Made by a program: the position numbers and the translations under genes. From IMG/VR virus record IMGVR_UViG_3300035686_000003, positions 1 to 64,000 of that record: 64,000 bases of DNA. One strand, given 5' to 3'. Position 1 is the first letter of the stretch; every line of letters begins with the position of its first letter. This document shows, piece by piece, positions 6,771 through 64,000 of this stretch. A model generated the notes under the pieces. The model saw only the letters and a program-made list of their open reading frames with translations. It had not been told where the DNA came from and did not search any database. The DNA comes from a virus (lineage: Duplodnaviria > Caudoviricetes).

Positions 6771-6781
6771 GATAGACGCTG

Positions 6782-9139: not shown

Positions 9140-9141
9140 GT

Positions 9142-9456: not shown

Positions 9457-9465
9457 TTTAAGATT

Positions 9466-9954: not shown

Positions 9955-9956
9955 CG

Positions 9957-11870: not shown

Positions 11871-11932
11871 AACTGTGAAACCACAGCCAACCACTGATTA
11901 CAATTAGTCTACGATGATACTTTAGTTTACTT

Positions 11933-12906: not shown

Positions 12907-12967
12907 TACTTTCTCCTACTACTTACACTTGCTGGTAGACGCACCCTGAAGACAGCTGTAGTATGCT

Positions 12968-13246
12968 CTAAAGTTTATTGCATTCATCTATTGGCTTCAC
13001 TTCGTACCAATAAGATATTCTGCGGATACCCGCTTCAAATAAAGCGGCAGAATCAAAATGTGGTAGAGCTTTTCTAAGAACAAAGAAGATATCATCCTGA
13101 ATTATCGAATCCTTTTCCCAAGTTACGCTGTATTGCCCCGAAAGATAAGTAATGCGCCCCACCACATTACCAGTAGACTTTCCCACATCTAGGTCAAGTG
13201 TGTCCAGAATTAAATGAGTTACTTGCTCTCCTGAATTGTGTCCCAT
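12968..13246 (-). CDS. Hypothetical protein
   Basis: AAGGAG RBS. Confidence 0.6.
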   Translation of the reverse strand: MGHNSGEQVTHLILDTLDLDVGKSTGNVVGRITYLSGQYSVTWEKDSIIQDDIFFVLRKALPHFDSAALFEAGIRRISYWYEVKPIDECNKL

Positions 13247-13259
13247 AATCTTGCTCCTT

Positions 13260-13481
13260 CTAACTTCCGCTAGCAGACTTCAGAATTGTCAGAACTTTGA
13301 CGAGTTCCTCTAGGTCAACTATTGCTGTTGTTTGGTTGCTTTTGTAGCTGTCGTCGGTCATCGTGACTTCTACCTTGCCTTCGTCATAAGAGTTGCCGGA
13401 AAGCACGAAGTCAATCTGCGAGATGTAAGTTTCTTTGCTTCGGTCTTCGTAGCAATGAAGCGTTAGTTTGATTTCAGCCAC
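13260..13481 (-). CDS. Hypothetical protein
   Basis: GTG after AAGGAG; the track's poly-Q extension is probably leader. Confidence 0.55.
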   Translation of the reverse strand: MAEIKLTLHCYEDRSKETYISQIDFVLSGNSYDEGKVEVTMTDDSYKSNQTTAIVDLEELVKVLTILKSASGS

Positions 13482-13538
13482 AAAAGCACTCCTTTGTTGT
13501 TGTTGTTGTTGATTGTTGTAGATACACCCTAATGTCAA

Positions 13539-13808
13539 CTATTGTTTGCTGTTACGCATTATAGGATGCGGTTCGACAACCTGCCATTCCGTTCTGTAGA
13601 CGGTCTTTGAAAACTCAGTTTCTTTGTCAACGTACTCAACAGCTAAATGGCTCGCACTAAAGTAGCCGAAAGCTTCAGCAGCATGAATGGCTTGATCGAG
13701 GTCGTCATAGAAGTGACCCTTGTTCTCATCTTTGCTCCACTCACCGACACCGACAAGATACTCGCCACTTCTCCAGCTAACCACGTAGTACCCACGACTT
13801 CTGCTCAT
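13539..13808 (-). CDS. Hypothetical protein
   Basis: GAGGAG RBS plus motif. Confidence 0.6.
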   Translation of the reverse strand: MSRSRGYYVVSWRSGEYLVGVGEWSKDENKGHFYDDLDQAIHAAEAFGYFSASHLAVEYVDKETEFSKTVYRTEWQVVEPHPIMRNSKQ

Positions 13809-14040
13809 TGCTCACATCTCCTCTGTAATCTCAAGTACTCTTCTGCGACACTGTAGTGGATGCACCCTCAAGTTTAGAAGGGAAGGTCTGGTTCATACTT
13901 TAGCAACCAACAAGCGATTCCTGCATTGCAAGCTCTCTCGCAGGCGATCAGATACCTCCTGTCCCACTCATAGGTAGGCGATCGCACCCAGTAGCCGCTA
14001 GACTCGCCATCGTAATACCAAGGGTCAACACTTGCTTGCA

Positions 14041-14295
14041 TTAGTAATCCTCCTCTACATCATCAAAACTCACTTCGTTCGTACCATCGAACCTGTCCAC
14101 ATCAACGCTCACGAACCCAGGACAGTTGCGTCCAACATTTTCTGGCGTAATTTCAGCACCTACTAGCTCCAAATCATCTATGTGACAATGAACTTTCATG
14201 TTCGTTGAGTCGCACTGATAGAAGTCATAAGGATAAGGTAGCCTATTGTGGGCTTCACCGTCAAAGTGGACGCAATCGTAACAACTGTGTGGCAT
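14041..14295 (-). CDS. Cys-rich hypothetical protein
   Basis: CxxC...C...C pattern; coupled to the upstream ORF. Confidence 0.6.
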   Translation of the reverse strand: MPHSCYDCVHFDGEAHNRLPYPYDFYQCDSTNMKVHCHIDDLELVGAEITPENVGRNCPGFVSVDVDRFDGTNEVSFDDVEEDY

Positions 14296-14591
14296 TAGTA
14301 TCTCCCACTATCAATCATTGACTGGATTAGGCGAGCTGAAGCCAATTCTTCATCATCTAGTTCTGCATCAGGGTTGAGTTTCCACACTGCCCACATCAAG
14401 GATTGTTGATGTGATAGGTCGTCAAAGTCGAAATCATTTGCGTCTAGCTCAGCTTTTATCATCTTTAGTAGCTCCAATGAGGCTGCAACCAAGACTCTTG
14501 TAGCCATATCAGTGCTTCCACCAGGACTTTCGCTGACAGTCAACTCTTCCGCCCACATTGCTAGGGTCTTCAGTACTACGTATGGTTTCAT
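14295..14591 (-). CDS. Hypothetical protein
   Basis: AAGGAG RBS plus motif. Confidence 0.6.
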   Translation of the reverse strand: MKPYVVLKTLAMWAEELTVSESPGGSTDMATRVLVAASLELLKMIKAELDANDFDFDDLSHQQSLMWAVWKLNPDAELDDEELASARLIQSMIDSGRY

Positions 14592-46457: not shown

Positions 46458-48440
46458 TCACAGTTTTTCGTTTTGTTCGTCACGACGATAACGATAATGG
46501 CGCAATTCTTCAGGTGTCAAATCATTGATAAGACCTAAGAATTCTTCTGGCATATGAGCCAAATACAGATCCATTGCTTCTCGAACTGTGTTGCAACCTA
46601 GGATTATTTTGGTTTCATCCAAAGTTTTGCGTTCCAACCAATCGTCTGCATTAGCTTTGAGTTGATAAACTTCAAAGATTTTTCCAGTCGGTTGTTCTCC
46701 ATCAGAGAGAGCTTGGTAAAACTCTTTGGTGGCATAGAAGTCTAGCGGTTGATTGTCGTGCCCCGTATGCTTCTGGATGTAGCCGTAGATACCTTCCATC
46801 GTGCGACTATGACGCAAATCACCTGGTAGGTATTCTACAGCTAATGTGCGATCGCCCCACTTGAATCGTTTCACAGCAGCATCTGTGCGGCGTTTGTCTG
46901 CCATACGTTCACGATCGCTCTCTTCAGCTTGCATTTGTGCGTTAGTGCCACCATCGCCACCTGAAGCAGCAATAGCCTTTTGCCCTATCTTTGTCCCTTC
47001 ATCGACTCCTGAATGCGCTGTACCTCCAGCCGCCATGCCAGTAGGCTTTCCACCTAAGACTGGCAACATAAACTCAGGATCGTCTTTATGTTCCCAAAGG
47101 AGCTTATCAATCTCAGGGTCAAGGGTTGTTTCCATTGTCCACTCTGGCGAACCATAGCGGTTCTTTCGTATCTCTAGCGGGTGCAATGAACCGAGCATTC
47201 GGTAGATTTGGTCAGTGCGAGCTTGAGTTTGGCGCAACTTAGCTTCTGCTTCCATGTCAAGGCGCATCGAAGACTTAGTGGAAATTTTCCAGCCTTTCGG
47301 TTCTTTACCTTTTGTTACTCCTAGCTTGCTAATAAGACAAAGTCGAGCAATAGTTCTCGTTGGTTTCAACCAGTTGTGCCGCTGAAAGGATTCTTGAGCA
47401 TCAGCGTAGTCATATTTTTCCGACTGCCCACTAGTGTTGCCTTGGCTACCTTCGCCCCACAATTTTGTATGAGGAATACCTGATTCAGCAGTCAATAAAT
47501 GCTTCAATCGGTCAACGATGTCACCTACACCACCATAGTTGCGGTGAACAAATTCAGCCTCTTCAGTCTCAGCATCCATAGCCAATCCCTTGTTGTAGCT
47601 CATGCCCAACTGTATAGCTAGGAAGCGACGTATGATTGCGTCCGACTGCCCTTGAAGAATTAAGTCCGACAATCCTTTGAGTTTGTATGTGAAGACTGAG
47701 TAGTCTTGGATCATTCCAGAGCTTGCCATGATTGACTGCATATATGATGAGAATGCAATCACGATAGATTGTAGTATGCTCAGGTCATTACCTTGATTTG
47801 AGTTGAGCATCCAACCGTAAAGTTTTCGTCCTGAGAATCTGAGTACTCTCGACTTATGAATCCTTGTCTGATTTAATGGAACCTTCTGTCCATCTGGCAA
47901 TCTTCTGTTTAGTTCCCATAGACCTATCAAATCATAATATTCTGGCTCAATGAGTGAGTGACCTCCAATCTCAGTCCCCCATACGGAAGGTCTTAGTTCA
48001 TAGGACGACAAGACTTTGAGTTCAGTAATCTCTTGGAGATTTTCCTCATCAATGGCTTGGTCAGGAGTTCTACCGTCATTGGCAAAGATAACGATATAGG
48101 CATTGTGGTGAAGTCGAGCTAAAACTGAAGCCTCTACCAACTTTTCATGGAGATTTAGCTTATCCTCCATGTAGTTGACGATATCTTGAGGCGCAATGTT
48201 GTCTTTGCCTAAGTTCAACGAATACCATTCAACAGGAGAATCTTCTGGCAATAGTGCAACAATTTTTTGAACTAATCCAGAAGTTTTGAATAATACCTCG
48301 CACTCTTCACGAGTGATTGTCGTTGCTTGGACATTGATTTCAAAGTTTAAGCTTTTGTCTCTGCGTGTACCTGTACCCGTTGAAAGGTTGTACATTCCCG
48401 CATAAGCATCTAGTAGCGCACCATCTTCTCTGTAAGTCAT
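46458..48440 (-). CDS. Portal protein (DUF1073-type) with C-terminal inorganic-pyrophosphatase-like domain
   Basis: RIHKSRVLRFSG, S.LQ, SGIPHTKLWG, EIR; tail YGYIQKHTGHDNQPLDFY...DETKIILG. Confidence 0.8.
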   Translation of the reverse strand: MTYREDGALLDAYAGMYNLSTGTGTRRDKSLNFEINVQATTITREECEVLFKTSGLVQKIVALLPEDSPVEWYSLNLGKDNIAPQDIVNYMEDKLNLHEKLVEASVLARLHHNAYIVIFANDGRTPDQAIDEENLQEITELKVLSSYELRPSVWGTEIGGHSLIEPEYYDLIGLWELNRRLPDGQKVPLNQTRIHKSRVLRFSGRKLYGWMLNSNQGNDLSILQSIVIAFSSYMQSIMASSGMIQDYSVFTYKLKGLSDLILQGQSDAIIRRFLAIQLGMSYNKGLAMDAETEEAEFVHRNYGGVGDIVDRLKHLLTAESGIPHTKLWGEGSQGNTSGQSEKYDYADAQESFQRHNWLKPTRTIARLCLISKLGVTKGKEPKGWKISTKSSMRLDMEAEAKLRQTQARTDQIYRMLGSLHPLEIRKNRYGSPEWTMETTLDPEIDKLLWEHKDDPEFMLPVLGGKPTGMAAGGTAHSGVDEGTKIGQKAIAASGGDGGTNAQMQAEESDRERMADKRRTDAAVKRFKWGDRTLAVEYLPGDLRHSRTMEGIYGYIQKHTGHDNQPLDFYATKEFYQALSDGEQPTGKIFEVYQLKANADDWLERKTLDETKIILGCNTVREAMDLYLAHMPEEFLGLINDLTPEELRHYRYRRDEQNEKL

Positions 48441-48442
48441 AG

Positions 48443-48832
48443 TTACACCACGAATGCCGACATGATTGTTGCCTTGCCACCAGTGCCGCACCCACATAAT
48501 TGATTCAATGCTTCACTCGCACTAAAACCTTGAGGCACTATGAGGGGGATACTCAAGTCAATCGCAAGCTGAAGATTAAGCAATGTTTCGATTGGTATAG
48601 CTTGTCCCGTAAAGGTCACGCCATCTTCTGCCTTTGACAGAGCTTGTATTTCTAGGTTTGTTTGTAATCTTCGAGCAGCAACGTAATAGTAGCGGTATAC
48701 GATGGCTCCAGACGGATCTATTCCTGCTGATAATTCAAGTAAGTCGCTAATGAATTCTATGTCTTGCTCAAGCAAAGCGTCTGCAAGCAGCTGGGCTTTA
48801 GCAATTGCTTGAGGCAGTGTGAGCAATGCCAT
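48443..48832 (-). CDS. Putative head completion/adaptor protein
   Basis: 129 aa, first gene of the head operon. Confidence 0.45.
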   Translation of the reverse strand: MALLTLPQAIAKAQLLADALLEQDIEFISDLLELSAGIDPSGAIVYRYYYVAARRLQTNLEIQALSKAEDGVTFTGQAIPIETLLNLQLAIDLSIPLIVPQGFSASEALNQLCGCGTGGKATIMSAFVV

Positions 48833-49912: not shown

Positions 49913-50800
49913 ATGCCTCAACAAGCTATTTGTCTTGATTTGCTCGAATCTACTGGGACTCAGCTTTATGCTGGGTTAGTCCCAGTGGGTTCTTGTACTC
50001 CGACTCCTTATACAGTGGTTCTTGGTGCAGCTGTTGCAGTAGGTGACGAAACCGTTACTGTCACTGCATTGCCAGTTGCAATTCCTAGAGGAAATCGTTT
50101 AGCCTTTTCTACCACTGTAACAATCACCACAAGTGCGTCTGTAACTCAAAACGCTACATCTATTAGTGTTACTGCTTTAGGTTCAGCTGTGCCTTCTGGT
50201 ACCACCCTAAAGTTTGGTAATGTAACCGTTCAAACAACTGCCGCTGCCGCTGCTGGCGCAACAACTCTAGCAATCAATCCTGCACCTGCTGCGATCGCAT
50301 CTGGCGCAACCGCAACGTATCGTCCAAACCCTATTGTTTTAGTTCTAGCTGCTGATGCTGCTGCTGCAACTACCACTCTCTCGATTGATCCGGCTCCTGC
50401 TGCAATTACTAGTGGTCAGACAGCAATTACTTATGCACTCCTTGAATTACTGGGTGGTGAGTCTGCACCGTTCCAAGGTTCCACTGAATTAAACCAGGTT
50501 ACCCTGCTTAACTCTGGTGGTTGGATGTCGAAATCTGCCTCCCAGTCCCAGTACAACTTTCAGTGGACAGGTTACATTCCCGAAAACTCTGCTGCTGCTG
50601 CTGGCTATCGTTTGCTAAAGAATGCTTGGTTTAACAAGCGTTACCTTTATGTCGAGCGCTACATGGCTAATGGCGAGATGTCTGGAGGTACTGTTGTTAT
50701 CACTGCATTTTCTGATCAGGTTCAGGGTGCTGGATATGTACAGTATCAGTGTACGTTTGAAGGTCATGAAGCACCTGTGTACAACTTTGGCGCATCCTAA
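49913..50800 (+). CDS. Tail tube (major tail) protein with inserted beta modules
   Basis: C-terminal GTVVITAFS....G.VQYQCTFEG; GW.SK...SQ.NFQWTG. Confidence 0.7.
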   Translation: MPQQAICLDLLESTGTQLYAGLVPVGSCTPTPYTVVLGAAVAVGDETVTVTALPVAIPRGNRLAFSTTVTITTSASVTQNATSISVTALGSAVPSGTTLKFGNVTVQTTAAAAAGATTLAINPAPAAIASGATATYRPNPIVLVLAADAAAATTTLSIDPAPAAITSGQTAITYALLELLGGESAPFQGSTELNQVTLLNSGGWMSKSASQSQYNFQWTGYIPENSAAAAGYRLLKNAWFNKRYLYVERYMANGEMSGGTVVITAFSDQVQGAGYVQYQCTFEGHEAPVYNFGAS

Positions 50801-51045: not shown

Positions 51046-51735
51046 ATGAAGAAGCTACCATTTGTTGTTCGTCCAAAAACTTCGTTTGAAATTGTGGGTA
51101 ATGAAGATATTGGTCAGATTAAGTTACTCAAAGTTAATGGACGACTAGCAGCAGAGAGAGTTGAGTTAGATGAAGAGGAGTTTCGACAGACTCGATTACA
51201 GCTTGATGTTTATAAGCTTGCTCGTGACATTGCTAATCTTGAGGGGATGAGTGTCGAGAGTGCTTTTTCTTTGCTTCAAAGTTTTAACTTAAGCGATCCT
51301 GTACTTTCCAAGTATCTCGAACCTGTATCTAATTTGCTTGAACGTCAGCTTGCAACAATGAAGGGACAAGATCAAGCGGTTACAAGTGTCCTTCGGCATC
51401 GAATCGTTCAGTTGGATGATGATGGTAACGAGATTCTTGACAAGAACGGTAAGCCTGTCATCGGCATGGATGATTGGGAAATTTCTGATACTCACGGTTT
51501 AACAGATCCTTTGATTTCTGCAATCTACGAGTTCTACATCAAAGAATTGAATGGTGGAAAGAACCCCGATACCAAGGCTGAAGAAGAAAAAAACGAACCT
51601 GGGACGAACAAATCCGAGAACTTGAATCCATCAAGCTCACAGACTGGGGAGAAATCTACTGGCGAGTCCAAACCTATCGAAGCGGAGACTCAAGATTCGA
51701 CGCAGACAATTTCGGACAACAACCCGACTGGTTAA
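51046..51735 (+). CDS. Tail assembly chaperone (G-like)
   Basis: Position between tube and tape measure; contains the slippery site. Confidence 0.7.
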   Translation: MKKLPFVVRPKTSFEIVGNEDIGQIKLLKVNGRLAAERVELDEEEFRQTRLQLDVYKLARDIANLEGMSVESAFSLLQSFNLSDPVLSKYLEPVSNLLERQLATMKGQDQAVTSVLRHRIVQLDDDGNEILDKNGKPVIGMDDWEISDTHGLTDPLISAIYEFYIKELNGGKNPDTKAEEEKNEPGTNKSENLNPSSSQTGEKSTGESKPIEAETQDSTQTISDNNPTG

Positions 51736-52049
51736 TTTTTCAGATCATTGAAGCCTTTGAAAAAGATAAGCGTGAGCAGTCAAACATCAACAGCTTCACA
51801 ACCGCTGTTTTTGCTGCTGGAATCTTCAATGGTTTTAGTGGAAGCACTAGCGACAAATGTGAATTCACTGATTTGCTACCTTTTTCTGGTGAAGTAGAAG
51901 GTAAAAATAATACAAAACAGATCAATGAGCCAACTAAGGAAACTGCTCAAGTATTTCTGAAGCTAATGAAAGATCACCTACTCCCACCAGGAGTAGTAGC
52001 GGAAGCTTTTAACGCAAAACTAGTGCAACGACTGCAAGCAATAGCTTAA
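51582..52049 (+). CDS. Tail assembly chaperone -1 frameshift extension (GT-like)
   Basis: A AAA AAC at 51588-51594; the -1 frame opens just after TGA 51579 and reads KKRTWDEQIRELESIKLTDWGEIYWR... to TAA 52049. Confidence 0.75.
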   Translation, partial: RRKKRTWDEQIRELESIKLTDWGEIYWRVQTYRSGDSRFDADNFGQQPDWLIFQIIEAFEKDKREQSNINSFTTAVFAAGIFNGFSGSTSDKCEFTDLLPFSGEVEGKNNTKQINEPTKETAQVFLKLMKDHLLPPGVVAEAFNAKLVQRLQAIA

Positions 52050-52053
52050 ATCT

Positions 52054-52100
52054 ACGAGTTCTCACGTTTAAATTTAGTTGAGGACTCGTTATTCTATTTT
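52054..52100 (+). terminator. Hairpin before the tape measure gene
   Basis: ACGAGTTCTCA / TGAGGACTCGT plus T-rich tail. Confidence 0.5.
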
Positions 52101-52132
52101 TGAGCAACTATATAAAATCTTAGGTATAACCA

Positions 52133-55100
52133 ATGGCATTGGGTAGTGGCGGCAACTTAGGCACCTTGAGTCTACATATCGAGGCAGACACAAGAGATTT
52201 TGATACCAAAATACTCCAGGTAGAAAAACGTGCTGCCGAAGCTGGTCGCAGAATGTCCAAGTCTTTAGGGGGTGAATTATTCAAGGGGTTGGATAGCCCT
52301 TTGAGTGTGAATGTAGATCATACGTCCTTAAAGGAACTTAACGCTCACCTAGATCTAAAGAGAAAACACTTACATCAGGTCATTGAAGATTTCAAGCGAA
52401 ACCCCATTGTTGCCAAGTATAAAGTTGAAGGAAAAGAGGCTCTTGAAAACTCTAGTGAAACACTCAAGGCTTTAAGCAACAAGCAGGTTGGTGTATCTGT
52501 ACTGGGTACAGGCAAAGCACTAGGGGAGATGGAGGCGATCGCGTCTAAAGACTTAAGTCAGACTGCTCGCATTGATATTGAGATTCATGGTGAAAAAGAT
52601 CTTGACAGAATTTTGCGTAAAATGCAAAGACTTCAAGATAGAAGCATAAGGGTAAATGTTACTAGTGCAAACTATGAAGATATTTCAGCTCCAATAATTA
52701 GTGCTGGAATAAAAAAAACAGGGTTGGTGCCGGACAATTCTCCACAAGAGCGAGCATTACTCAAAGCAATAGAGAAAGTCGGCGGGAAAGAACAAAACGC
52801 TCCATTGTCTGCTGGTGGGCAGGAGATGAAAACTGCCGTTTCTCAAGCACTACGAGAAAATCAGCAAAGCTTTGGATCGCAAGCAGCCGCTACTGTTGTT
52901 AGCACATTGGTTGAACGAACTGTAGGACTCGCTCTGGAAGAAGGATTTTCTAGGGTGATGTTAATTATTTCTAATGTAATTAAAGACAAGCTAAGGTTTT
53001 TAGATTACATTGGACTTAAAGGACTACGACAAGAGCTAGAGAAGACAGTTACTAAAAATTATCGACAAGTAGCTTATACAGAGCAAGGAAGAATTGGCGG
53101 TTTTCGTGGTTTAGCGAGAGATGTTCGCAAAGTTGCTACACTTCCAGCAAAGATGTTGGCAGCACCAGCTTCTCAAGTCATCGGTGGTTTCTATGGTGGC
53201 ATTGGACAGGCATACGCAAGCGCTTTTGCTCGTGGTTCAATGAATAAGTTTCAAGAACGAACCGGAAAGTCAGTCGAAGAGGTTGGTGAAAAAGCTAGCG
53301 GGGGTTTAGCTGGTAGATTTACAGGCACTAATATTGCTGAAGGGTTAGTTTCCAGAGCTGGGACGATCAAGGGAGCGCAAGATTTCATAGAGCCTAGGCT
53401 AAGGACTGCTGCATTGGGGAGAGCGGTTCAGACTGTTGACCCAACTGGTCAAATAGAGAAAGTTCTTCAACCAATACTGAAGAGATATGGTGTCAGGTTA
53501 AACACAGAACCATTACGTAATGCTGATCCTGAGCCAATCACTAATTCTATAAAGAAAATTAGTCAAGCTCTGAAGCAGAACGATATTCAGAGGGATGTTG
53601 CAAACTTTACTCGTTCAATCTTGACGTTGGGCAAGGTAATTAAAACAACTCAACAAAATGTTAACCAGGCAACTACTCCAGAAGAACGCAGTAGTAGGCG
53701 AGGGCAAGCTGATGCAGCTAGAGCTGAGCAGATTGTAGAAATACTAGGAAATCTTGAAACTACCGCTCGCAATGCAACTGAGCCTATTATTAGCAACTAT
53801 AAAAAGGAAGTAGCCGCTGCCGCAAAAGCTTTGGGCGTAGAGCTTTCCAATATAAAAATTGACCCAGACAAACAGTTAGGTCAAGACATAAAAAATGTCG
53901 CAATAGTTTCCGGTGGATTTGCAGGAATGCAAGGGGAAGCTGGGCAAAGGCAGGCACCTATGTATGAACAGATACTAGGTGATGGAACCAAAGTGGTACC
54001 CTTTAATAACGAAGATTTTGATACTTCGGTAAAAGCTCAGGACGATAAGCCTGCTTGGGTTAGAGACATAGCTGGCTTGTTTGCAAGGAATATTAGCAAG
54101 GGCTACAATCCTGCCTCTATAAAAATGGCGCAACAGGCTGCTGAGTATAAGTTGACGAATCCAGCCGTTGATCTTCAACTAATTGGACATTCAGCGGGTG
54201 GGATTATTGTCAAAGAAGCACAGGCAATGCTTAAGGAAATCGGAATAGAAGCAAAAGCTATTGCCTTGGGTAGCCCAAATATAAGAGATGCGGCTTTCAA
54301 TGGGACGGACTCCAATTTTCTGAGTTTCATGGCAGAAAAGGATATGTTAAATCCTCTGTCAGGAGAAACAACTCCTAGAATACCAGGGATTGAGAATCAT
54401 TCTATTGATGAGTACCTATCCAACCAGGCAGTACAAGCAGTTTTAAAAACGGTAAGCAAGGTAGGGATTACGCCTAGGCTTATTGAAATTTTAAACAAAA
54501 CTGGTACAGAGTTTTCAGACTTAACTACGCTAACTCAAGCTTTAGAGGATCACCTTCGAGAATTCACAGGGTCGTTAGATAACGCTACTCAAGAAGTTGC
54601 AAATCAAAACATTGCTCCGTTACAGACTCCTGAAACAGATCCTAAACAGGCAGCGCTAAAAGCTAGGGTATTACTTTTAGCAAGAAAGTCCCAACAAATA
54701 ATTCCAAATTTCAACCCTGCTAATTATGGTAACGCTGCTAGTGCTGCTAGTACTAATAGACAACAGGCTTTACAAGCACTAGAATCCGTGAAAGGATTTG
54801 ATTTTAATCAGCAACTTTCAACTCAAACCTCTAATGAACTCAGGAAAGCAATTAGAAATCTTCAAAGTTTTCTCAAGAGAGCTGGACAAGAAGATAATAA
54901 CAATAGCATCACTGAGCTTGAGCAACTACCGCTTGATGAGTTAAGTACACTGATAGAAACAAACGTGGCAGCAGTTAATTCTATTGCTGCCAATTACCAG
55001 TCGTCTGCACAACAAATAGACGACTTAAAGGCTAGGCTGGGGAGCTTGACCGTCAAAGATTTAAGAGAGATTGGAGGAAAAGCAAACATTCCCAACCTGA

Positions 55101-58100
55101 GTCAGTTAAACAAAGATCCTTTAATCAATAAGTTAACTGAACCCCAGAATGCGTTTAATGTTGCAAAATTTGCTTCGGAAAAAGAACTCTTAAAGTCAAT
55201 ACGAAACGCAGAAAAAAAAGCAACTCAAGCTTTGCAGACGGCTCAAAAATTAAGTGGCGACGAAAAACTTAAGCTTCTTGCAGAGATTAGACAGTCTATT
55301 GAAGCTCAAATTCGCAACATAGACGCTAACTCTGAAAGGGTAACTGATTCAGGGTATAGGCAACGACTAGGAGCTACCAAAGGCAGGCTTGGGCAAAGCT
55401 ATCGTAGAACATTTGATGTTTCTTCGGTAGAAATAGATACAACTAGGCAAAGTCTACAAAATGCTATAGATCAGGGTGGTGCTACTCCTGGTTTATCAGC
55501 TGCTTATACAACACCACCAAAGAATTTTCAACGTTTGGTTGCTAATGCGGCTCAAGCAGCAGGGGTAGAGCTTAACGAGAAGAATCAACCGGAGCTAGTT
55601 GAAGATGACATAAAACTTTTAGCTTTAGGCTCGAAAGCTTTTTATGACTTTACAAAGAACCAAGTAATTGTATCGCGTAGGACAGCCCAAGCACTTAAAT
55701 CATCTGTTACTGACCTTCATAAATATGAAGAAGAACTTGGCGAGGCTATCCATGAAATACAACACGCAGCTGATCTAGGGTTTAGCAAGTTAGATCCCAC
55801 CAACTTTGGTTCTCAAATCATTGAAAAGTCAGCTAATATTCCTACCATTGAAGACTCTCAATTAACCAAAAAATTACTCAAACAAGTAGAGGGGTCTGTA
55901 TCTAATTACAAGATGCTACGACCTAATGCATCGCCTGCCGAACTTGCTGCGGTGCGAAAACTGGAGATGCACGCTTCATACCAACAAAAGAATGCACCTC
56001 AGTATATCAATCAGCTAAAAGATAAGTATGGACAAACGAAAACATCAAGAACTGAATTAGAGGGTATAAAGAAAAATCCTTTTGAGAATATCAGCAAGCA
56101 ATTTGAGAACTTTGTTAACACCATAAAAAAGGTATTGCGATCACTGTTTGCTGCTTTCGAGAATACATCTAGAGGACTTGCAATAGCTGATTCTTTTGCA
56201 ACGCTAAGCAACGTATTTGAAAATTTCAACAAGCAGATGTTGCGCTATGGAGAAGAACTGCAAGAGGTCTTTAATAATATTAGTCTTGCTTTTGACTTTG
56301 TTATTGGGATGTTCATGGAGAAAAATGCTCATGTTGATAAGCTAGTTCAAAAAGCAGAAAGATTTTATGTTAATTTCCAAAGAACCAAGAAAGGAGTTGC
56401 CGATCCCTCAGAAGGTTTGCCCTCTGGGGTAAAAGTAACAGAAAACAACCTCGTTTCCAAGAACAGAAGTTACAGTTTTCAAAGCAAAAGTGGCAAAGAA
56501 GTTGGGGTTTATTTTTCGCACAAGAAAAATATGTCCGATGTTCACTTTGACATTGACAAAAGTATGTCAACCAAAGTCAATGACATGAGCCAAAAGGAAA
56601 AAGATGCAATTGCTTTGAAAGTCTTGAAGATAATGAAGCATGATGCAAAAAGTAGAAAAGAGGGCTATCGTTACAAAACCTCAGCTTACACAGGAGATGA
56701 TTATGGAGCAGTTCGATCTGAAGCCTATGAGCAAATTGCTGGATTTAGTCGTCCTGTTGCAGGTAAGGTAGGAGGCTACCAGTTTGCCGTTGTTCAAGGA
56801 GGAAAGTTAACTCCTGACAATAAAAAATTAGAGCAGCAGGAATACATCCACGATCATTCACCTGATGATGTATCCCAAAATCTAGCTCAATTCAAAGAGC
56901 TTCTTGCAATTCAAAGACAAGCAGCAAAAGCAGCGGCAGCAAACAATCGTGCTAACAAGGGTTTGTCAGTTGCTAACGGCAGAGGCTTAGATGAAGCCTA
57001 CGAAAACTTTGAGAAGTTTGTAAATAAAGTTAATGATAAAGCAGAAGAGTTAATCAAAGCAACGTTTACGCCTGAACTAAAGCAACGAAGGGTAATAGAA
57101 TCAGCCGAAGCAATCAAGAGTTCTGCTCCTACAGGTAAAGCTGCTATGCCTGCCGCTGATAAAGAATTTTCAACTTATTTATCGGCAGGGTTTTCTGGTA
57201 TGCAAGGGTTCAACCCTCAAGTATATGAGAAAATGGCAGGAGTTTTGGGCGAAAAACACAATTTTGTACCCATTACAAATGAAGAGTACGACACTGATGC
57301 AACAGTGTTTGATGACTTGCCTGTTTTTCTAAAATCAGCACTTGAGAGAATTACTGCTGGCGGAATGAAGGGTATAAACCCAGCAGCCGCTAAGATGGCG
57401 CAAAGAGCCTATGAAGACTATCAACTTGACCCTTCAAAGAAAATCAGATTTGCTGGATATTCAGCAGGGGCACACGTAGCTTCTGATGCTTTAGAAATAT
57501 TTAAGCAGCTAGCACCTAACGCTGACGCTAGGGCTGTTGGTATTGGTGGGGCACCCTTTGATCAAAGGCGATCAACACTTCGACCAGAGCAATATGTCAA
57601 TATGTTGCGAAAGGATGACTTGCTCCTTCGTGCATTTGCTGGTGCCTTTAAGATGAATGGTGCCAACCAAAGGATTATTGAGCCGAGTGTTAATAAAGGG
57701 GCGATAAAAGCATTAGATGCTCACTTCATAGAAGGTTATGCCGATGATCAGAATACGGCAAGAGAACTAAAGTATCTTATCGAGGCATCTGAATCTGAGA
57801 TACAAGCATTTCTGAGTTCCGTAGCAGATAGCTCAAGTGTCCTTTCGGTTTTTGCAGACAACGCTGGAGCTTACAAAGGTACTGCTGAAGAAATAATAAA
57901 ACAGCTCGATAATCTTGCATCAGCATTAGAACAGAAGACGGCTCAAATTCAACCACGAATGCAACAACGTGGACAAGCGAGTTTGAATTCTGTAATGCAA
58001 TCTGGAATGGGTGCTTTTAACAACACCTTATCTAATGCTCAAGGACTGAGGCAGACGCCAGCACAAATGCAGCGTTTGATGGCTGAAGCACGAAAGCGAG

Positions 58101-61100
58101 CAATGCAATCAGCAGCGGCTACAGGTATTAGAGAAGGTCAGGGTATCCTTAATTCGGGAATTAATAAGACTTCAAGCTTAGCTGAGACATTTAGACAGCC
58201 TGGTGTAAAAGTCATTCAAGCATATGGAGAAGATCGAAAGGCGCAAGTGAGAGCTTCGTCAGCTCAAGCCATTGCAAGTGTAGCGAATGCGACAGAGGCA
58301 GTTTCTAACAGTATCAGTGAAGCGGCAAGAGTCTTAGCTGAAAAAGCTCAAAACACAAACAACGATGCATTAAAACTTCTTTACAACGAACTTTCCCTAA
58401 ATACTCCGGTGCTTGAAGCGATCGCACAGCGTACTGGACAAAAGGTAGAGACAATCATTCAGAACATTGCATCTGAAGCAGAAAACTCTATTAACGAAAA
58501 AACCCAACAACTTTCAAGTGGTTACCAAGGAGGGATCGATGCAGTTCAAGAAGGAGGTGAGCAAGCTAAAGGGTTTGTAAATGTTGTTGCAGGATTAAGT
58601 CAACGAGCAACTACAGATCCCATAGGAGCTTTCAATGAAGCTAAAGCGTTGTTAGCGGGAAAAATTCTAGATGATCTTAAAGCTAGATTCCCTATTTTTG
58701 GTGAGATTCAACGACGCTTTGGGATGATAACAGGGGCTGCAAGTGCTTTGGTAGGAGCTTTTGTGGGGTTTGCTGTTTTGAAAGGTGTGATGCTGTTCTT
58801 TGAGAAGATAGGGTTTGCGGCTATTGAAGTAGCAACTCGCTTTGAAAACTTAGAGCGCATCATTCGATTTACAAGTGGCAGTGCAACAGAAGCAGCACAA
58901 AATATTTCCTTTGTTCAAGGACTGTCAGACAAGTTTGCCTTGAATCCCGAAAAGGCAATGAGTGGATTTGCTCAGATGTCAGCGGCTGCACTCGAAACGC
59001 CTTTGCAAGGTGAAGGTGTTAAGAAGATTCAAAGCAGTATTTCTCAGGCATCAGCAGTCTATGGTTTAGCTCCAGAATCTCAAGAGCGAGTTTTTGTTGC
59101 ATTGAACCAGATGATTTCAAAGGGCACCGTAAGTTCAGAAGAACTTCGTCAACAACTCGGTGAATCGTTGCCTGGTGCCTTAAATATTGCAGCTCGAAGC
59201 ATGGGGGTTACAACCTCTGAATTCAACAAAATGTTAGAGCAAGGACAAGTTCTTTCAGAAGATTTCTTGCCTAAATTTGCAGCACAACTAGCGGCTGAAA
59301 CAGAAGGAGGCGTTGCTGGAGCAGCTACTAGCGCCCAAGCAAAAATTAATCGATTTAATAACGCAATCCTTACATCTCAAAACATTCTTGGTAAAGGTTT
59401 GATGCCTGTTAAGAATTTTGGCTTAGATGTTCTTACAGGTTTGTTGACAGGATTAACAAAAATCTTGCCAGTTGTTGCTCATCTCATGGGAAGCCTACTG
59501 TTCGCTTCTGTTTTGCAGCTGGGTAAATCATTCTATATGCTAGCAGCAAATCCGATGGTGAGAGGCGCAGTCTGGGGAGGACTCAAAGGGGCTATTGGTG
59601 GTCTGATAACTATCATTAAATCGCTTTCTGGTTACATTTCACAATTCGCAAAAGCTTTCCTCGTATTTACAGCAATTACCGAAGGCTACAAGATGTTCAA
59701 AGCTGCCACAGCAGACGGTGGTGGCGAAAGTAGAACTTATGCTGACAAACTGACAGAAGGGCTTGGCAAGTATCGTAAAGCTTTGGCTGATGCTCGTGGT
59801 GAGACTGAGGCACTTAAGAAATCTACAAGACCAGAGACGCTTCTAGATGCTACTTTCCTAGGCAACTTGATGCCGAAAGAAATAGAGGAAAATGATTCCC
59901 TAGCAAAGAAAGCTGGGTATTATGCAGGCAAGTTTACCTCAACTGGTTTACTCAACGAAGACCAGATTGAAGGGATGAGCAAAAATGCATTAGGTCGCAC
60001 TGCTCTCCAATGGGGACTCGGAGGTATTACAGGTGCCCAAAAGGGATTCGGTTTAGCAACCTTTGAAGAGAAGAAGTTTGCTGACCAACAAGTAGCAACA
60101 GGCGACATCAGAAGTGCAGCCAACGAAACTACTTCACAGATAATTTCTGCTATACCAGGCAAAGAACTAGCAGCATTGAAGGAGTATGACCGTAAGCTTC
60201 GAGACATCCAGATCAAGCGTCGTGGTATCAGTGAGACACAACCCCAGAACAAAGAGGCATTGAGGAAGCTCAAGGAGGAAGAAGCACAAATCCTCAAGAA
60301 CAGGGATGCTGCACAGAAACCTATCAGTGCATTACAAGCTCAAGCCCAAAGCTCGGTAGATGCATTAAAGGCTGAGGTGGAAAAGTATGAGAAGCTCGCC
60401 CTTGAACCCGGAAAGAATCAAGCCTACTACAAAGAAACACTCGCAGGACTCAAAGGTGACCTTGAAGCTGCATACAAGTTCCAAGATAAGCTAAATCAAT
60501 CAGTTGGTGAAGCTGTCAATGCATTTATCCTGTTACAACGACAGTTACAAAATGTAGCCGACCGTTTAGCTGATGCGAATGATCGTATTCAGATGATTGC
60601 TAACAGTGCAAAAGCTGACTTATTCGGAAGGACTGATTTAACTCCAGGTCAAAGGGAAGCGGGACAACAAGAGATTGAACAAGCTGCATTGGGTGAGCAG
60701 ATTAAGCAACGTCAAAGTGCAATTCAGCAATATCAGGTTCTCCTGGAAGATGCTGATAGCCAAAAGATCCTTGAAGCTCGTGGAATAACCAATGTTGATG
60801 CGATAGGTCAAGCTGAGTTAGGAACACTTGCAGGTAAAGCAAAGGATGGCACCCAGGAGAAAGAAGTTCTCACAAGGTTACAGGACGTTAAGCGACTCAA
60901 GCTCGAAACCCAAGATCTGACAGCTCAACTAGCTCAATCTCAAGCGGCAACTCGCGACAGAATCTATGATGCTAACAAACAAATTATTGATTACTTCAGA
61001 GAAGTATCCAGACAGTCTGCTGAGCTAGCTTTGTCAACGAAGGAAGCTGGGGCACAAATCGCAATGCAAGAGCAGAAGAATAAGCTCAAGTCAGCACTGC

Positions 61101-64000
61101 AAGGCTTCCAAGACAATTTCTTCAGCTCGTTCGTAGATTCTCTTATTGAAGGCGTAGATTCTCTCAATGAGCCAATAGCAGCAGCCATCGAAAGAGAAAG
61201 AGAAGTCCAGTCAGCCAAATTTGCTAAAGATGACCGTGATCGTCAAGCCTATGAGTTACAAAGGTCACTACCGTTAGCTGGTGCCGAAGTAAAGCTAGAC
61301 TTTGGTGCATTAGATTCAGCTCCCGTCAAAGAACTAGAGAAGACCCTCCAAAAGTCAGCAGAAGCTAGCAAACAAGTTACAGCAGCATCAAAAGAAACTG
61401 GTGCGGCGATCGCTGACTCGTCAAAGCAAGCTGGGAACCTGAATACTAATGTAACCAAAGTTGCCGAAGACACGAAAGAGACTAAAGCAGCAACTGACAA
61501 CGTAACGACTGCACTAAAGGAGAACGTTGAAGCTGCTCAAAAAGTTGGTGGACAGGTTTACCTCAACACTCAGGAAGTCGATGCAAACACTTTGGCTATC
61601 GGTGGCACCAATGACGCCCTTGGGAACCAGAGTGATGCTCTTGCTGGCTTAGGTGGGCAGTTGCTTGAGCAAGGGGGTTTGATTGATGGGATTAATAGCA
61701 TCTGGAACACTGTTAGTGGAACCATTGCTGGAGCAGCTGCTAGGACTTGGGATTGGTTTAAGGGATTGGTTGCAAACACTCCCATCCTAAGTGGAATCAT
61801 GGAAACTCTTGACGGTTGGGCTAAAAGCATTCAGAATGCAATTGCTAAAGCTTGGGAATTCTTCAAAGGATTAGCTGATAACGTTCCATTCTTGCGTTCC
61901 ATTGCTGATGCAGTAGGAGCCATTGGTTCAGGTATTGGTGGGGCTGTTCAAAATGGAATGCAAGCGATTGGTATTGGCAGGGAACAAATAAATACTGGGA
62001 AGGGTGTAGGTGTCGTTGGAAAATATACCATCGTGGAGAGTGTTGGTGGTGCTATCCAAAACGTCAATACCTTTAGAGATTTAGAAAAACATCATCCCTC
62101 TAGAGGTCGAGAAGCAGGTAGAAGCTACGGTCATGTTGATGGAGAATTTGAAGAAATTAGAAATACTAGAGATGGACGCACTCTAGTTAAAAAAGATTTC
62201 GTTCTGTCAAAAAATGGAAATCAAAATGTAGATATCCCAGCGATGGCTTCTGGTTTCGTCAAAGTGCTAGGTGATGCCACCAACACTGTCCAGATCTATG
62301 CCGATAAAGAAATGACAAAACTTCTTGGGCAGTCATTGCACCAAAGAAGTGTAGCAGTAAAAACAGGACAATTTGTTAACTACGGGCAATCGCTGGGTAT
62401 TCAAGGAGATAGGGGTTCGCCAGGTGCAATTCATGCACACATTGAACTAGAGAAAAGTAGATTTGAACAATACATCAAAGATCTCAAAGATGGAACCTTC
62501 GAGGGTGTAAATGGTGGTGTTAGCACAGCATTAGATGGTGCTGGCGGATCAGTAGTGAAGCTTGGACAAACAATGGTTCAAGAATTAGCTCACTACCCTG
62601 GAGATGGACACAATCATGGTGGCTTTGACGGCAAACAATCTCAGGCTGAACGCTCAAATCTTCAAGGTGCTGGAAACATCCTTCGTGGTGGGAATTTCAA
62701 TCCCTTTGCTGGTGGATCTAATTCATTTGCAGCAAGAGTAGTCGGTCATAGCGAAGGCAACCGAACGGCAACTGGCGGTTTCAACCGTGGCTACAGGGGT
62801 CATGGTGACCCTGGCAATGGTCAAAGAAATGTCGGTTCGTTCAGTGTGCAAACGGGAACTCATGGAAATATGAGTGCTGAACAAGCCGATGTGTATTGGC
62901 AAAAGAAACTGGCGGCAGTGTTGCCACAATTCCAAACAGCAGCAAGAGGTGCTGGATTAGACCCAAACAATCCTAAGCTTCTGGCAAACTTCCTTGACCT
63001 CCACACTCAGTCGCCAGCTGCTGCTACTGATAAAGGGCATCGTAATTTCCTAAGTCAGCTACCTGCGATCGCTAAAGCGGGTATGAGCGATGAGTCGATA
63101 TTACAAGCTCGGATGTCAGGCTACTATCGCAACAATGGTCGTGCTAACTTCCCTGGCTTTGGCAATGACCCCAACCGTCTGCGTCGTGACCAGATGCGGC
63201 GTATGGCGGCACTGCAAGCGGCTCTACCAGGTGCAATACAAGCTACAGGGGCACCAGCAGGTTCTAGTGGAGTAGTTGCTTCAGGAGCGGCTCCAGCGGC
63301 ACAACAGAACTTACCTGTGTTAGCTCCAGTACCTTTTGCTTCCATGAGTAGCACAAGTGTCGATACGGCACCACTGTCTGCTGCTCAAGCGGAAAGTGAA
63401 AGAATTCGTCGTGAACAAGAACGTCAAGCCATTGCCAAGGAACGTGCAAGAAACGAGGAAGCTCGTGTTCAAGGTGAGCAAAGGCAGCGTCAGCGACTAG
63501 AGCAACTACGGCAAAGCATCCGTGATACGGAAGGCGATCGCATCCAAACGAATCGTCAATTCACGAACCTGGGACTAGACGCACAAATCCAAACACCAGA
63601 CGTTGAGTCAAGTAGAAAGATACTTGGTGTCAACGAGACTTATGATGACTTAGAGCGTGACATTGCTGAGAAGGTTCGCAAGGCAACAGCTGGTCGTGAC
63701 CAAGCTAGGGCGACTTTACAAAAATTAAGTTCTCCCGACTACGTTCCTCAACCAGGACAAGATGTTGGACGTGACATCGAAGCAACACGTACAGCTATTA
63801 CCCAGGCTGAGAAGTATTTGGGTGACCTTACGAGAATTCAAGGTGAACTGAAAGGTCAGCGTCAGGAAAGAATTCGCTTTGAGGAGGAACAGGCTGCTCG
63901 TGAGAAGAAACTTCGTGAACAGCAAGAACGATTTGCCACTGAAGAAATCAGTATCTCAGTTCTAGAAGCTGAAGCTCAACGACTCAAAGATTTGCGAGGG
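52133..64000 (+). CDS. Giant multi-domain tape measure protein (at least 3,956 aa, runs off window end; absent from ORF track)
   Basis: MALGSGGNLGTLSLHIEADT start; frame spot-checked at six points; tape measure motif QMISKGTVSSEELRQQLGESLPGA at 59108; GHSAG, GYSAG, HEIQH, M23-like HAH and lysozyme-like motifs. Confidence 0.85.
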   Translation, partial: MALGSGGNLGTLSLHIEADTRDFDTKILQVEKRAAEAGRRMSKSLGGELFKGLDSPLSVNVDHTSLKELNAHLDLKRKHLHQVIEDFKRNPIVAKYKVEGKEALENSSETLKALSNKQVGVSVLGTGKALGEMEAIASKDLSQTARIDIEIHGEKDLDRILRKMQRLQDRSIRVNVTSANYEDISAPIISAGIKKTGLVPDNSPQERALLKAIEKVGGKEQNAPLSAGGQEMKTAVSQALRENQQSFGSQAAATVVSTLVERTVGLALEEGFSRVMLIISNVIKDKLRFLDYIGLKGLRQELEKTVTKNYRQVAYTEQGRIGGFRGLARDVRKVATLPAKMLAAPASQVIGGFYGGIGQAYASAFARGSMNKFQERTGKSVEEVGEKASGGLAGRFTGTNIAEGLVSRAGTIKGAQDFIEPRLRTAALGRAVQTVDPTGQIEKVLQPILKRYGVRLNTEPLRNADPEPITNSIKKISQALKQNDIQRDVANFTRSILTLGKVIKTTQQNVNQATTPEERSSRRGQADAARAEQIVEILGNLETTARNATEPIISNYKKEVAAAAKALGVELSNIKIDPDKQLGQDIKNVAIVSGGFAGMQGEAGQRQAPMYEQILGDGTKVVPFNNEDFDTSVKAQDDKPAWVRDIAGLFARNISKGYNPASIKMAQQAAEYKLTNPAVDLQLIGHSAGGIIVKEAQAMLKEIGIEAKAIALGSPNIRDAAFNGTDSNFLSFMAEKDMLNPLSGETTPRIPGIENHSIDEYLSNQAVQAVLKTVSKVGITPRLIEILNKTGTEFSDLTTLTQALEDHLREFTGSLDNATQEVANQNIAPLQTPETDPKQAALKARVLLLARKSQQIIPNFNPANYGNAASAASTNRQQALQALESVKGFDFNQQLSTQTSNELRKAIRNLQSFLKRAGQEDNNNSITELEQLPLDELSTLIETNVAAVNSIAANYQSSAQQIDDLKARLGSLTVKDLREIGGKANIPNLSQLNKDPLINKLTEPQNAFNVAKFASEKELLKSIRNAEKKATQALQTAQKLSGDEKLKLLAEIRQSIEAQIRNIDANSERVTDSGYRQRLGATKGRLGQSYRRTFDVSSVEIDTTRQSLQNAIDQGGATPGLSAAYTTPPKNFQRLVANAAQAAGVELNEKNQPELVEDDIKLLALGSKAFYDFTKNQVIVSRRTAQALKSSVTDLHKYEEELGEAIHEIQHAADLGFSKLDPTNFGSQIIEKSANIPTIEDSQLTKKLLKQVEGSVSNYKMLRPNASPAELAAVRKLEMHASYQQKNAPQYINQLKDKYGQTKTSRTELEGIKKNPFENISKQFENFVNTIKKVLRSLFAAFENTSRGLAIADSFATLSNVFENFNKQMLRYGEELQEVFNNISLAFDFVIGMFMEKNAHVDKLVQKAERFYVNFQRTKKGVADPSEGLPSGVKVTENNLVSKNRSYSFQSKSGKEVGVYFSHKKNMSDVHFDIDKSMSTKVNDMSQKEKDAIALKVLKIMKHDAKSRKEGYRYKTSAYTGDDYGAVRSEAYEQIAGFSRPVAGKVGGYQFAVVQGGKLTPDNKKLEQQEYIHDHSPDDVSQNLAQFKELLAIQRQAAKAAAANNRANKGLSVANGRGLDEAYENFEKFVNKVNDKAEELIKATFTPELKQRRVIESAEAIKSSAPTGKAAMPAADKEFSTYLSAGFSGMQGFNPQVYEKMAGVLGEKHNFVPITNEEYDTDATVFDDLPVFLKSALERITAGGMKGINPAAAKMAQRAYEDYQLDPSKKIRFAGYSAGAHVASDALEIFKQLAPNADARAVGIGGAPFDQRRSTLRPEQYVNMLRKDDLLLRAFAGAFKMNGANQRIIEPSVNKGAIKALDAHFIEGYADDQNTARELKYLIEASESEIQAFLSSVADSSSVLSVFADNAGAYKGTAEEIIKQLDNLASALEQKTAQIQPRMQQRGQASLNSVMQSGMGAFNNTLSNAQGLRQTPAQMQRLMAEARKRAMQSAAATGIREGQGILNSGINKTSSLAETFRQPGVKVIQAYGEDRKAQVRASSAQAIASVANATEAVSNSISEAARVLAEKAQNTNNDALKLLYNELSLNTPVLEAIAQRTGQKVETIIQNIASEAENSINEKTQQLSSGYQGGIDAVQEGGEQAKGFVNVVAGLSQRATTDPIGAFNEAKALLAGKILDDLKARFPIFGEIQRRFGMITGAASALVGAFVGFAVLKGVMLFFEKIGFAAIEVATRFENLERIIRFTSGSATEAAQNISFVQGLSDKFALNPEKAMSGFAQMSAAALETPLQGEGVKKIQSSISQASAVYGLAPESQERVFVALNQMISKGTVSSEELRQQLGESLPGALNIAARSMGVTTSEFNKMLEQGQVLSEDFLPKFAAQLAAETEGGVAGAATSAQAKINRFNNAILTSQNILGKGLMPVKNFGLDVLTGLLTGLTKILPVVAHLMGSLLFASVLQLGKSFYMLAANPMVRGAVWGGLKGAIGGLITIIKSLSGYISQFAKAFLVFTAITEGYKMFKAATADGGGESRTYADKLTEGLGKYRKALADARGETEALKKSTRPETLLDATFLGNLMPKEIEENDSLAKKAGYYAGKFTSTGLLNEDQIEGMSKNALGRTALQWGLGGITGAQKGFGLATFEEKKFADQQVATGDIRSAANETTSQIISAIPGKELAALKEYDRKLRDIQIKRRGISETQPQNKEALRKLKEEEAQILKNRDAAQKPISALQAQAQSSVDALKAEVEKYEKLALEPGKNQAYYKETLAGLKGDLEAAYKFQDKLNQSVGEAVNAFILLQRQLQNVADRLADANDRIQMIANSAKADLFGRTDLTPGQREAGQQEIEQAALGEQIKQRQSAIQQYQVLLEDADSQKILEARGITNVDAIGQAELGTLAGKAKDGTQEKEVLTRLQDVKRLKLETQDLTAQLAQSQAATRDRIYDANKQIIDYFREVSRQSAELALSTKEAGAQIAMQEQKNKLKSALQGFQDNFFSSFVDSLIEGVDSLNEPIAAAIEREREVQSAKFAKDDRDRQAYELQRSLPLAGAEVKLDFGALDSAPVKELEKTLQKSAEASKQVTAASKETGAAIADSSKQAGNLNTNVTKVAEDTKETKAATDNVTTALKENVEAAQKVGGQVYLNTQEVDANTLAIGGTNDALGNQSDALAGLGGQLLEQGGLIDGINSIWNTVSGTIAGAAARTWDWFKGLVANTPILSGIMETLDGWAKSIQNAIAKAWEFFKGLADNVPFLRSIADAVGAIGSGIGGAVQNGMQAIGIGREQINTGKGVGVVGKYTIVESVGGAIQNVNTFRDLEKHHPSRGREAGRSYGHVDGEFEEIRNTRDGRTLVKKDFVLSKNGNQNVDIPAMASGFVKVLGDATNTVQIYADKEMTKLLGQSLHQRSVAVKTGQFVNYGQSLGIQGDRGSPGAIHAHIELEKSRFEQYIKDLKDGTFEGVNGGVSTALDGAGGSVVKLGQTMVQELAHYPGDGHNHGGFDGKQSQAERSNLQGAGNILRGGNFNPFAGGSNSFAARVVGHSEGNRTATGGFNRGYRGHGDPGNGQRNVGSFSVQTGTHGNMSAEQADVYWQKKLAAVLPQFQTAARGAGLDPNNPKLLANFLDLHTQSPAAATDKGHRNFLSQLPAIAKAGMSDESILQARMSGYYRNNGRANFPGFGNDPNRLRRDQMRRMAALQAALPGAIQATGAPAGSSGVVASGAAPAAQQNLPVLAPVPFASMSSTSVDTAPLSAAQAESERIRREQERQAIAKERARNEEARVQGEQRQRQRLEQLRQSIRDTEGDRIQTNRQFTNLGLDAQIQTPDVESSRKILGVNETYDDLERDIAEKVRKATAGRDQARATLQKLSSPDYVPQPGQDVGRDIEATRTAITQAEKYLGDLTRIQGELKGQRQERIRFEEEQAAREKKLREQQERFATEEISISVLEAEAQRLKDLRG

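Follow-up and report, generated by a model that had tools for sequence, protein, structure and literature searches.

A Giant Tape Measure Protein, Probably of a Cyanobacterial Siphovirus, with a Predicted Enzyme Module Ahead of Its Core

We analyzed a window of 64,000 bases of viral DNA (bases 1 to 64000 of the 147,706-bp IMG/VR virus record IMGVR_UViG_3300035686_000003) in which a giant open reading frame (ORF) begins at position 52133 on the plus strand and encodes a tail tape measure protein of 4,745 amino acids (aa). We propose that this protein is a polyvalent-protein-like enzyme cargo (residues 1 to ~2190) fused to a complete canonical tape measure (residues ~2190 to 4745), and that the phage is best explained as a siphovirus of cyanobacteria; we give this reading as a whole a probability of about 0.65. 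The front part contains two predicted Ser-Asp-His alpha/beta-hydrolases that look catalytically intact, a putative divergent gluzincin, and, in addition, a Rho_N-like motif and an unassigned globular domain. The remainder consists of hydrophobic segments, a TMP_3 core, helix-rich stretches interrupted by M23-like and "SEGNR" domains, and a Gly-rich C terminus (22 to 34% Gly). We infer the enzyme activity, processing, and virion location of this protein. The features of the ORF are as follows.

52133 to 64000, continuing to record base 66370 (133 to 14370 of our locus L002), plus strand: giant tape measure ORF, a stop-free frame with Pfam TMP_3 and PHROG matches

53840 to 54562, plus strand: predicted alpha/beta-hydrolase D1, aa 570 to 810, with the oxyanion motif GGFAGMQG and the triad Ser687 (in GHSAG), Asp737, and His756

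55037 to 55138, plus strand: Rho_N/SAP-like helix-extended-helix motif, aa 969 to 1002, below threshold (phrog_2724, E = 4.6e-4; Rho_N, PF07498, E = 1.1e-4)

55430 to 56122, plus strand: divergent gluzincin-like metallopeptidase, aa 1100 to 1330, with H1207-E-x-x-H1211 and an invariant Glu1278

56399 to 56830, plus strand: conserved globular segment, aa 1423 to 1566, 48 to 63% identical in the relatives P0003 and P0004

57080 to 57862, plus strand: predicted alpha/beta-hydrolase D2, aa 1650 to 1910, a paralogue of D1 with Ser1777 (in GYSAG), an Asp in RKDDLL (aa 1826 to 1831), and His1864

58718 to 58825, plus strand: hydrophobic, membrane-like segment, aa 2196 to 2231, where the canonical tape measure part begins (Kyte-Doolittle 19-mer maximum, 2.19)

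58820 to 59368, plus strand: tape measure core TMP_3 (PF20155), aa 2230 to 2412, E = 4.6e-24, 85.7 bits against a cutoff of 41 bits

59459 to 59521, plus strand: second hydrophobic segment, aa 2443 to 2463 (Kyte-Doolittle maximum, 1.79)

62003 to 62494, plus strand: M23-like peptidase domain, aa 3291 to 3454, with HxH kept (H3434 and H3436), matching residues 738 to 897 of PDB 8kea_A (E = 2.5e-9)

62690 to 63262, plus strand: "SEGNR" domain, aa 3520 to 3710, a putatively cell-wall-associated orphan family with the homologues P0153 to P0156

A first-pass annotation, made by reading the window, had described a single ORF of at least about 4,000 aa. Followed to its end, the frame is free of internal stops up to the window end and beyond, to record position 66370, and a stop-free run of 14.2 kb rules out a chance ORF. 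Two relatives are collinear with it and of similar size, P0003 (5,054 aa) and P0004 (4,721 aa); because they come from independent assemblies, one of them in a syntenic locus, a misassembly or other assembly artefact is ruled out as the origin of the ORF. The motifs that the first-pass annotation had named lie where it had placed them, with GGFAGMQG at 53909, GHSAGG at 54185, the Rho-N-like pair at 55046, HEIQH at 55751, AGFSGMQG at 57182, GYSAGA at 57455, HAHIE at 62432, and HSEGNR at 62747. Its tape measure core, at 58820 to 59368, also held up. Besides the TMP_3 match, PHROG tape measure families matched the giant ORF (phrog_18891, E = 3e-32; another, E = 2e-29), and these profile matches identify its product as a genuine tail tape measure protein.

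The N-terminal module contains the two hydrolase domains. Their proposed duplication was confirmed when D1 and D2 were compared by blastp (E = 3e-19, 34% identity), which by sequence makes them true paralogues. Searched as single sequences, both stayed below the Pfam thresholds, D1 with 20.0 bits against 22 for Lipase_3 (PF01764) and D2 with 14.3 bits against 25.9 for Cutinase (PF01083); their sequences place them in neither family, though they are predicted to work like such enzymes. An AlphaFold2 model of D1 from a 22-sequence alignment had a mean predicted local distance difference test score (pLDDT) of 92.7 and a predicted template modeling score of 0.90. Foldseek placed this model, at a probability of 1.0, next to Bacillus subtilis lipase A, cutinases, PETases, and thioesterases, acyl-protein thioesterases among them. 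In the model D1 adopts an alpha/beta-hydrolase fold in which Ser687 follows strand 680 to 686, Asp737 follows strand 729 to 734, and His756 follows a short strand at 749 to 750; all three residues occupy the places predicted by the fold, behind strands 5, 7, and 8. The D1 alignment profile also matched the CE5 cutinase 4psc (E = 2.2e-6), with the nucleophile elbow aligned.

The sub-threshold matches to the Pfam lipase and cutinase families would suit catalytically dead domains that serve only for binding or as spacers. We consider this explanation most improbable in view of the residues that are kept. Among 98 full-length copies of the domain that are otherwise just 23 to 35% identical to D1, Ser687 is present in all 98, Asp737 in 94 (with Glu in 3 more), His756 in 97, and the oxyanion Gly595 in all 98, and GxSxG was found in 204 of 216 hydrolase copies. 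We therefore predict from the alignments and the model that D1 and D2 are minimal, lidless lipase/cutinase-like serine hydrolases that are selected for catalysis.

Between the two hydrolases lies the domain with the HEIQH motif, which the first-pass annotation had recognized as a zincin. A local iterative search found 40 copies of this domain in 28 giant proteins, with HExxH kept in all 40, mostly as HExxHxxQ. H1207, E1208, H1211, and E1278 are invariant across 14 zincin sequences, which indicates a gluzincin-type arrangement in which Glu1278 would be a metal ligand. The AlphaFold2 model of the domain (pLDDT of 84.8 overall and >90 for residues 30 to 200) shows a sheet of three strands and, after it, long helices, and both HExxH and Glu1278 are helical in it. 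Foldseek searches with the model returned nothing at an E value of ≤0.001 from the PDB or BFVD, and a sequence search of the PDB gave no match. When six members were compared with the Pfam zincin families, including the polyvalent metallopeptidase (MPTase) families, none matched at an E value of ≤0.05, the best being one member against DUF6782 (E = 0.088). We found no short stand-alone homologues. We read this domain as a divergent zincin family without a close solved relative, as judged from its alignment and model.

The helix pair that had been called Rho-N-like fits the sequence pattern of Rho_N at aa 969 to 1002, but its score stayed just below the Pfam cutoff (22.6 versus 24.9 bits). The globular segment at aa 1423 to 1566 had no match in Pfam and was found only in the query, P0003, and P0004.

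The placement of lipase-like domains N-terminal to a tape measure core had been considered unusual, and this judgment did not stand. An exhaustive profile search with the hydrolase domain retrieved 251 cluster representatives, 113 of them at an E value of ≤1e-10. We examined 151 proteins, namely the query, P0003, and the best hits of that search. The hidden Markov model (HMM) of the tape measure core matched 83 of the 151, and in all 83 the one to four hydrolase copies are N-terminal to the core. Where the source annotations name these relatives, they call them "tape measure domain-containing protein." By these alignments the N-terminal hydrolase domains are a recurrent and conserved architecture in this lineage. 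A megablast search of GenBank phages with the giant ORF gave no match, and pattern scans of IMG/VR and GTDB genomes yielded no confirmed relative. An extreme relative is P0012 (6,835 aa; JGI/NCBI), which has four hydrolase and six zincin copies ahead of a core at aa 4995 to 5299 and whose cluster includes a fragment from a Cyanobacteriota metagenome-assembled genome (MAG). A related tape measure of 3,359 aa, P0034 (L010:6001-16080), has matches to Beta-lactamase2 (PF13354) besides M23, which shows that the enzyme cargo varies among relatives.

The module also occurs in a cultured phage. In Aphanizomenon phage vB_AphaS-CL131 (MG209611), the tape measure gene, ORF049 (2,131 aa), is directly preceded by ORF047 (330 aa) and ORF048 (1,811 aa), which carry three to four copies of the hydrolase-like domain found here (tblastn E = 4e-9). 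As in our record, the domain adjoins a tape measure; the host of CL131 is a filamentous cyanobacterium. Unlike in our record, the module is in separate genes annotated "hypothetical protein," and the tape measure belongs to another family. The zincin was not detected in the ORF047-ORF048-ORF049 region. A second case in which the hydrolase module stands apart from the tape measure gene is P0081 in locus L019. Analysis of CsCl-purified CL131 virions by liquid chromatography-tandem mass spectrometry detected all three proteins, ORF048 with 105 peptides and 54.6% coverage (PMC6293099). Because ORF047 and ORF048 were detected in virions, the hydrolase module is virion borne, at least in CL131.

These data bear on whether the N-terminal extension is delivered at all. 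It could instead be a scaffold or chaperone-like module of the assembly phase that the zincin removes before the tail is completed. In several phages, proteolysis of the tape measure accompanies assembly, the zincin of the relatives often lies directly before the tape measure core, and split-gene forms exist, all of which would suit such a module. Against it, the homologous domains of ORF047 and ORF048 are abundant in purified CL131 virions, and a scaffold needs no catalytic triad conserved at 96 to 100%. We consider an undelivered scaffold improbable and return to the reading in which the extension is an enzyme cargo.

A close precedent for such a cargo is the polyvalent proteins described by Iyer et al. 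in 2017 (PMC5512222). Like the front half of our protein, they are very large and multidomain, and they are carried in virions, as the front half presumably is; they have one to five interspersed copies of a zincin MPTase, in which HExxH is joined by a Glu from the following helix, their accessory domains include Rho-N, and autoproteolytic release of their domains is presumed. The differences concern location and content. The examples in that study travel in the phage head (P1 DdrB and the N4 virion RNA polymerase) or move by conjugation, whereas the module here belongs to a tape measure protein or to genes just ahead of a tape measure gene. The hub enzyme here is an alpha/beta-hydrolase, which has no mention in that study, and the study names neither tape measures nor esterases (PMC5512222). 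DNA- or RNA-directed domains are absent here, and the zincin matches no Pfam MPTase family.

Given these likenesses, the N-terminal 2,190 residues might be a polyvalent-type effector package that acts inside the host, in takeover, counter-defense, or remodeling of lipids or acyl-proteins, with the cell wall left to the M23-like and SEGNR domains. The tape measure C terminus is at the tail tip in lambda and T5; if the same holds here, the N-terminal module would exit last, beside the DNA. Zincin copy number (up to six in this family, compared with one to five plus Rho-N in polyvalent proteins), weak BFVD rows for the zincin that include polyvalent-protein entries, and the acyl-protein thioesterases among the structural neighbors of D1 point the same way. 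On the other side, Pfam scans of the query found no nucleic-acid-modifying, ADP-ribosyltransferase, or anti-restriction domain, the zincin falls by sequence into no Pfam MPTase family, and by sequence the hydrolase comes closest to a secreted CE5 cutinase/carbohydrate esterase. Such a package, confined to action in the host, appears to us rather unlikely. For the N-terminal hydrolases themselves, breaching of the envelope and an effector role inside the cell or in the periplasm are equally good fits.

In the fusion of cargo and tape measure that we favor, the second half of the protein would be the ruler. The core is flanked by the two hydrophobic segments. The CL131 tail is 361 nm long (PMC6293099), and its 2,131-aa tape measure alone roughly accounts for that length, at 0.17 nm per residue. 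By analogy with CL131, the ruler is probably only the canonical half of our protein, aa 2190 to 4745 (2,556 aa), and the tail would be ~270 to 430 nm long, a range that reflects whether the globular and Gly-rich parts within this half are included. If all 4,745 residues counted at 0.15 nm each, the tail would be 712 nm long. The protein has only three cysteines, which make up a CxCxxC cluster (GCGCRAC) close to the C terminus, at aa 4594 to 4599 (L002:13912-13929, beyond the window). The cluster is kept in P0003 and absent from P0004; it was rejected as a family feature since only 2 of 85 giant relatives have it.

The first of the two domains embedded in this half had been described as M23-like, and its homology to PDB 8kea_A agrees with that description. 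The match to Pfam M23 (PF01551) was marginal, with 27.6 bits for the isolated segment and 22.1 for the whole protein, under the cutoff of 28.7. PDB 8kea is gp15, the baseplate hub of Anabaena phage A-1(L) (PMC10966104); the two are homologous over ~160 residues, and, as read by eye, both have the HxH motif and an apparently noncanonical first motif. They differ in setting, since the peptidase of A-1(L) is in a myovirus baseplate hub and the one here is inside a tape measure. The hub peptidase domain lyses Anabaena PCC 7120 cells in vitro, and mutations at conserved catalytic positions lowered its activity or its expression (PMC10966104). By this homology the domain at aa 3291 to 3454 is a predicted, apparently noncanonical M23-like peptidase related to a lytic hub domain; we call it noncanonical because HxH is kept but, as read by eye, the His of HxxxD is replaced, here by Leu and in the hub by Gln at the same position.

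The second embedded domain, named SEGNR after its motif, had been called lysozyme-like, and profile comparisons gave this no support. Two protein-atlas queries suggested T6SS_VgrG3-like_C (PF21277). Neither that family nor GH108 (PF05838) was supported, as hhalign with true members gave probabilities of ≤0.7 in all four comparisons. Profiles of 5 and 20 SEGNR sequences gave only chance hits in the PDB, and a Pfam search gave nothing; a lysozyme fold is plausible but unproven. The segment defines a family of its own. In addition to the four short homologues, a sample of 401 genomes of cyanobacterial species had SEGNR in 28, frequently in multiple copies (loci L041 to L060), and the alignment has an invariant Glu in S/A-E-G together with H-x-D-P and D-Q-x-R-R motifs. 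Among 10 cellular SEGNR proteins tested, 4 are fused to an S-layer homology (SLH) anchor and 1 to M23, and a Microcoleus phage encodes a SEGNR-M23 fusion within a cluster of cell wall enzymes beside its baseplate genes. Because the domain is fused to SLH or M23 and set among phage cell wall enzymes, its sequence context points to a role at the cell envelope.

Tape measures with embedded murein hydrolases are established. Those with which we compared this protein are T5 Pb2 with a metallopeptidase, the mycobacteriophage TM4 protein with an Rpf motif, and staphylococcal phage proteins with a transglycosylase and M23. Like these, our protein has a tape measure core, hydrophobic segments, helix-rich stretches, and a presumably peptidoglycan-directed M23-like domain, and its gene lies between the tube and tip genes. 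Unlike them, it has ~2,190 extra N-terminal residues with two Ser-Asp-His hydrolases and a zincin, and its 4,745 aa exceed the usual length of a tape measure several times over. In literature searches of incomplete coverage, we found no paper on hydrolase, lipase, or esterase domains in tape measures. We regard as new the fusion of a polyvalent-type enzyme module to a complete tape measure, which is widespread in cyanophage lineages.

We envisage the following order of events. The tape measure would lie within the tail lumen and be expelled at infection, and the M23-like and SEGNR domains would then open the peptidoglycan. The N-terminal hydrolases, nearest the DNA, would come next and hydrolyze ester or lipid bonds, either of the envelope or of host targets, and the zincin may cut the polyprotein into working pieces. 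The first-pass annotation had likewise pictured an injected polyprotein that breaches the cyanobacterial envelope; of that interpretation, a tape measure with several enzyme domains and the link to cyanobacteria, wherever a host could be assigned, were retained, and its terms "unusual" and "lysozyme-like" were not.

Several observations weigh against the fusion as we read it. Folded domains of 25 to 30 kDa fit poorly in a tail-tube lumen of ~4 nm. Simple self-cleavage would not call for several zincin copies per protein, of which P0012 has as many as six. As read by eye from the sequence, the M23-like domain has a Leu four residues before D3355 in place of the canonical first zinc-ligand His. 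Finally, the CL131 tape measure does not match the core HMM, and because it is of a different sequence family, the transfer of tail length from CL131 is an analogy only.

A broader and more tentative idea, which we hold to be somewhat less likely than its opposite, is that giant cyanophage tape measures are a previously unrecognized effector delivery route. A polyvalent-type enzyme package of one to four serine esterase/lipase and one to six orphan gluzincin copies, either joined to the tape measure or carried by genes immediately upstream, would precede the DNA through the tail lumen and be cut into active enzymes in the host envelope or cytoplasm. If true, this would be a siphovirus counterpart of the lumen-loaded cargo of contractile injection systems. 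Tape measures are usually seen as rulers, at times with a cell wall hydrolase, and this family adds a conserved enzyme front half of ~2,000 residues. At least 83 protein clusters contain this module, as do prophages of ~2% of the sampled cyanobacterial species. It raises the questions of how folded enzymes are stored in or next to a ~4-nm lumen, which ester or lipid bond is cut for phage entry into a cyanobacterium, and whether siphoviruses deliver polyvalent effectors by way of the tape measure. Since CL131 is in culture, has virion proteomics, and carries the same module, experiments are feasible. Three domain families without a Pfam model can be defined from the alignments: the tape-measure-associated hydrolase, the HExxHxxQ zincin, and SEGNR.

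The assignment to cyanobacteria comes from the relatives. The host was cyanobacterial in every case in which one could be assigned, with the sampling of host genomes for the hydrolase module drawn from cyanobacterial genomes. Among genomes of 301 cyanobacterial species, 6 contained the module, within open frames 1,647 to 3,854 aa long, and one member of a hydrolase cluster comes from a Cyanobacteriota MAG. The genome encoding P0023 has 10 genes for phycobilisome proteins. On a 102-kb contig, the gene for the giant tape measure P0006 adjoins a gene for NblA (L017:1-239), a protein of phycobilisome degradation that is a cyanophage marker.

The genes upstream of the giant ORF are consistent with a tail module.

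46458 to 48497, minus strand: portal protein (phrog_146, E = 1.1e-61)

49913 to 50800, plus strand: major tail protein (phrog_1407, E = 1.3e-7)

51046 to 51735, plus strand: ORF of 229 aa where a tail assembly chaperone would be expected, assigned by position only

Searches of PHROG and Pfam placed the 229-aa ORF in no family. Downstream of the tape measure are a small HINT protein and then a 911-aa lambda-J-like central fiber (phrog_31, E = 4e-187; Pfam FNIII-A_GpJ and Phage-tail_3). The order of portal, major tail protein, giant ORF, and lambda-J-like fiber puts the giant ORF in the tape measure position, and by gene content the locus is a siphovirus tail module.

Two smaller features of this locus were noted. 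A stretch of ~400 bases (51736 to 52132) that separates the putative chaperone ORF of 229 aa from the beginning of the tape measure contains only small ORFs, of 49 and 58 aa on the plus strand, which could be a frameshift extension of a chaperone of the G/GT type. The HINT protein directly after the tape measure is a stand-alone PT-HINT/Hint protein of 164 aa (L002:14961-15455; record positions 66961 to 67455), and the fiber (L002:16241-18976; record positions 68241 to 70976) has a HINT domain of its own at its start, aa 22 to 153. These domains may take part in autoproteolytic or splicing-type processing at the tail tip. The P0004 locus likewise has a PT-HINT plus GpJ fusion.

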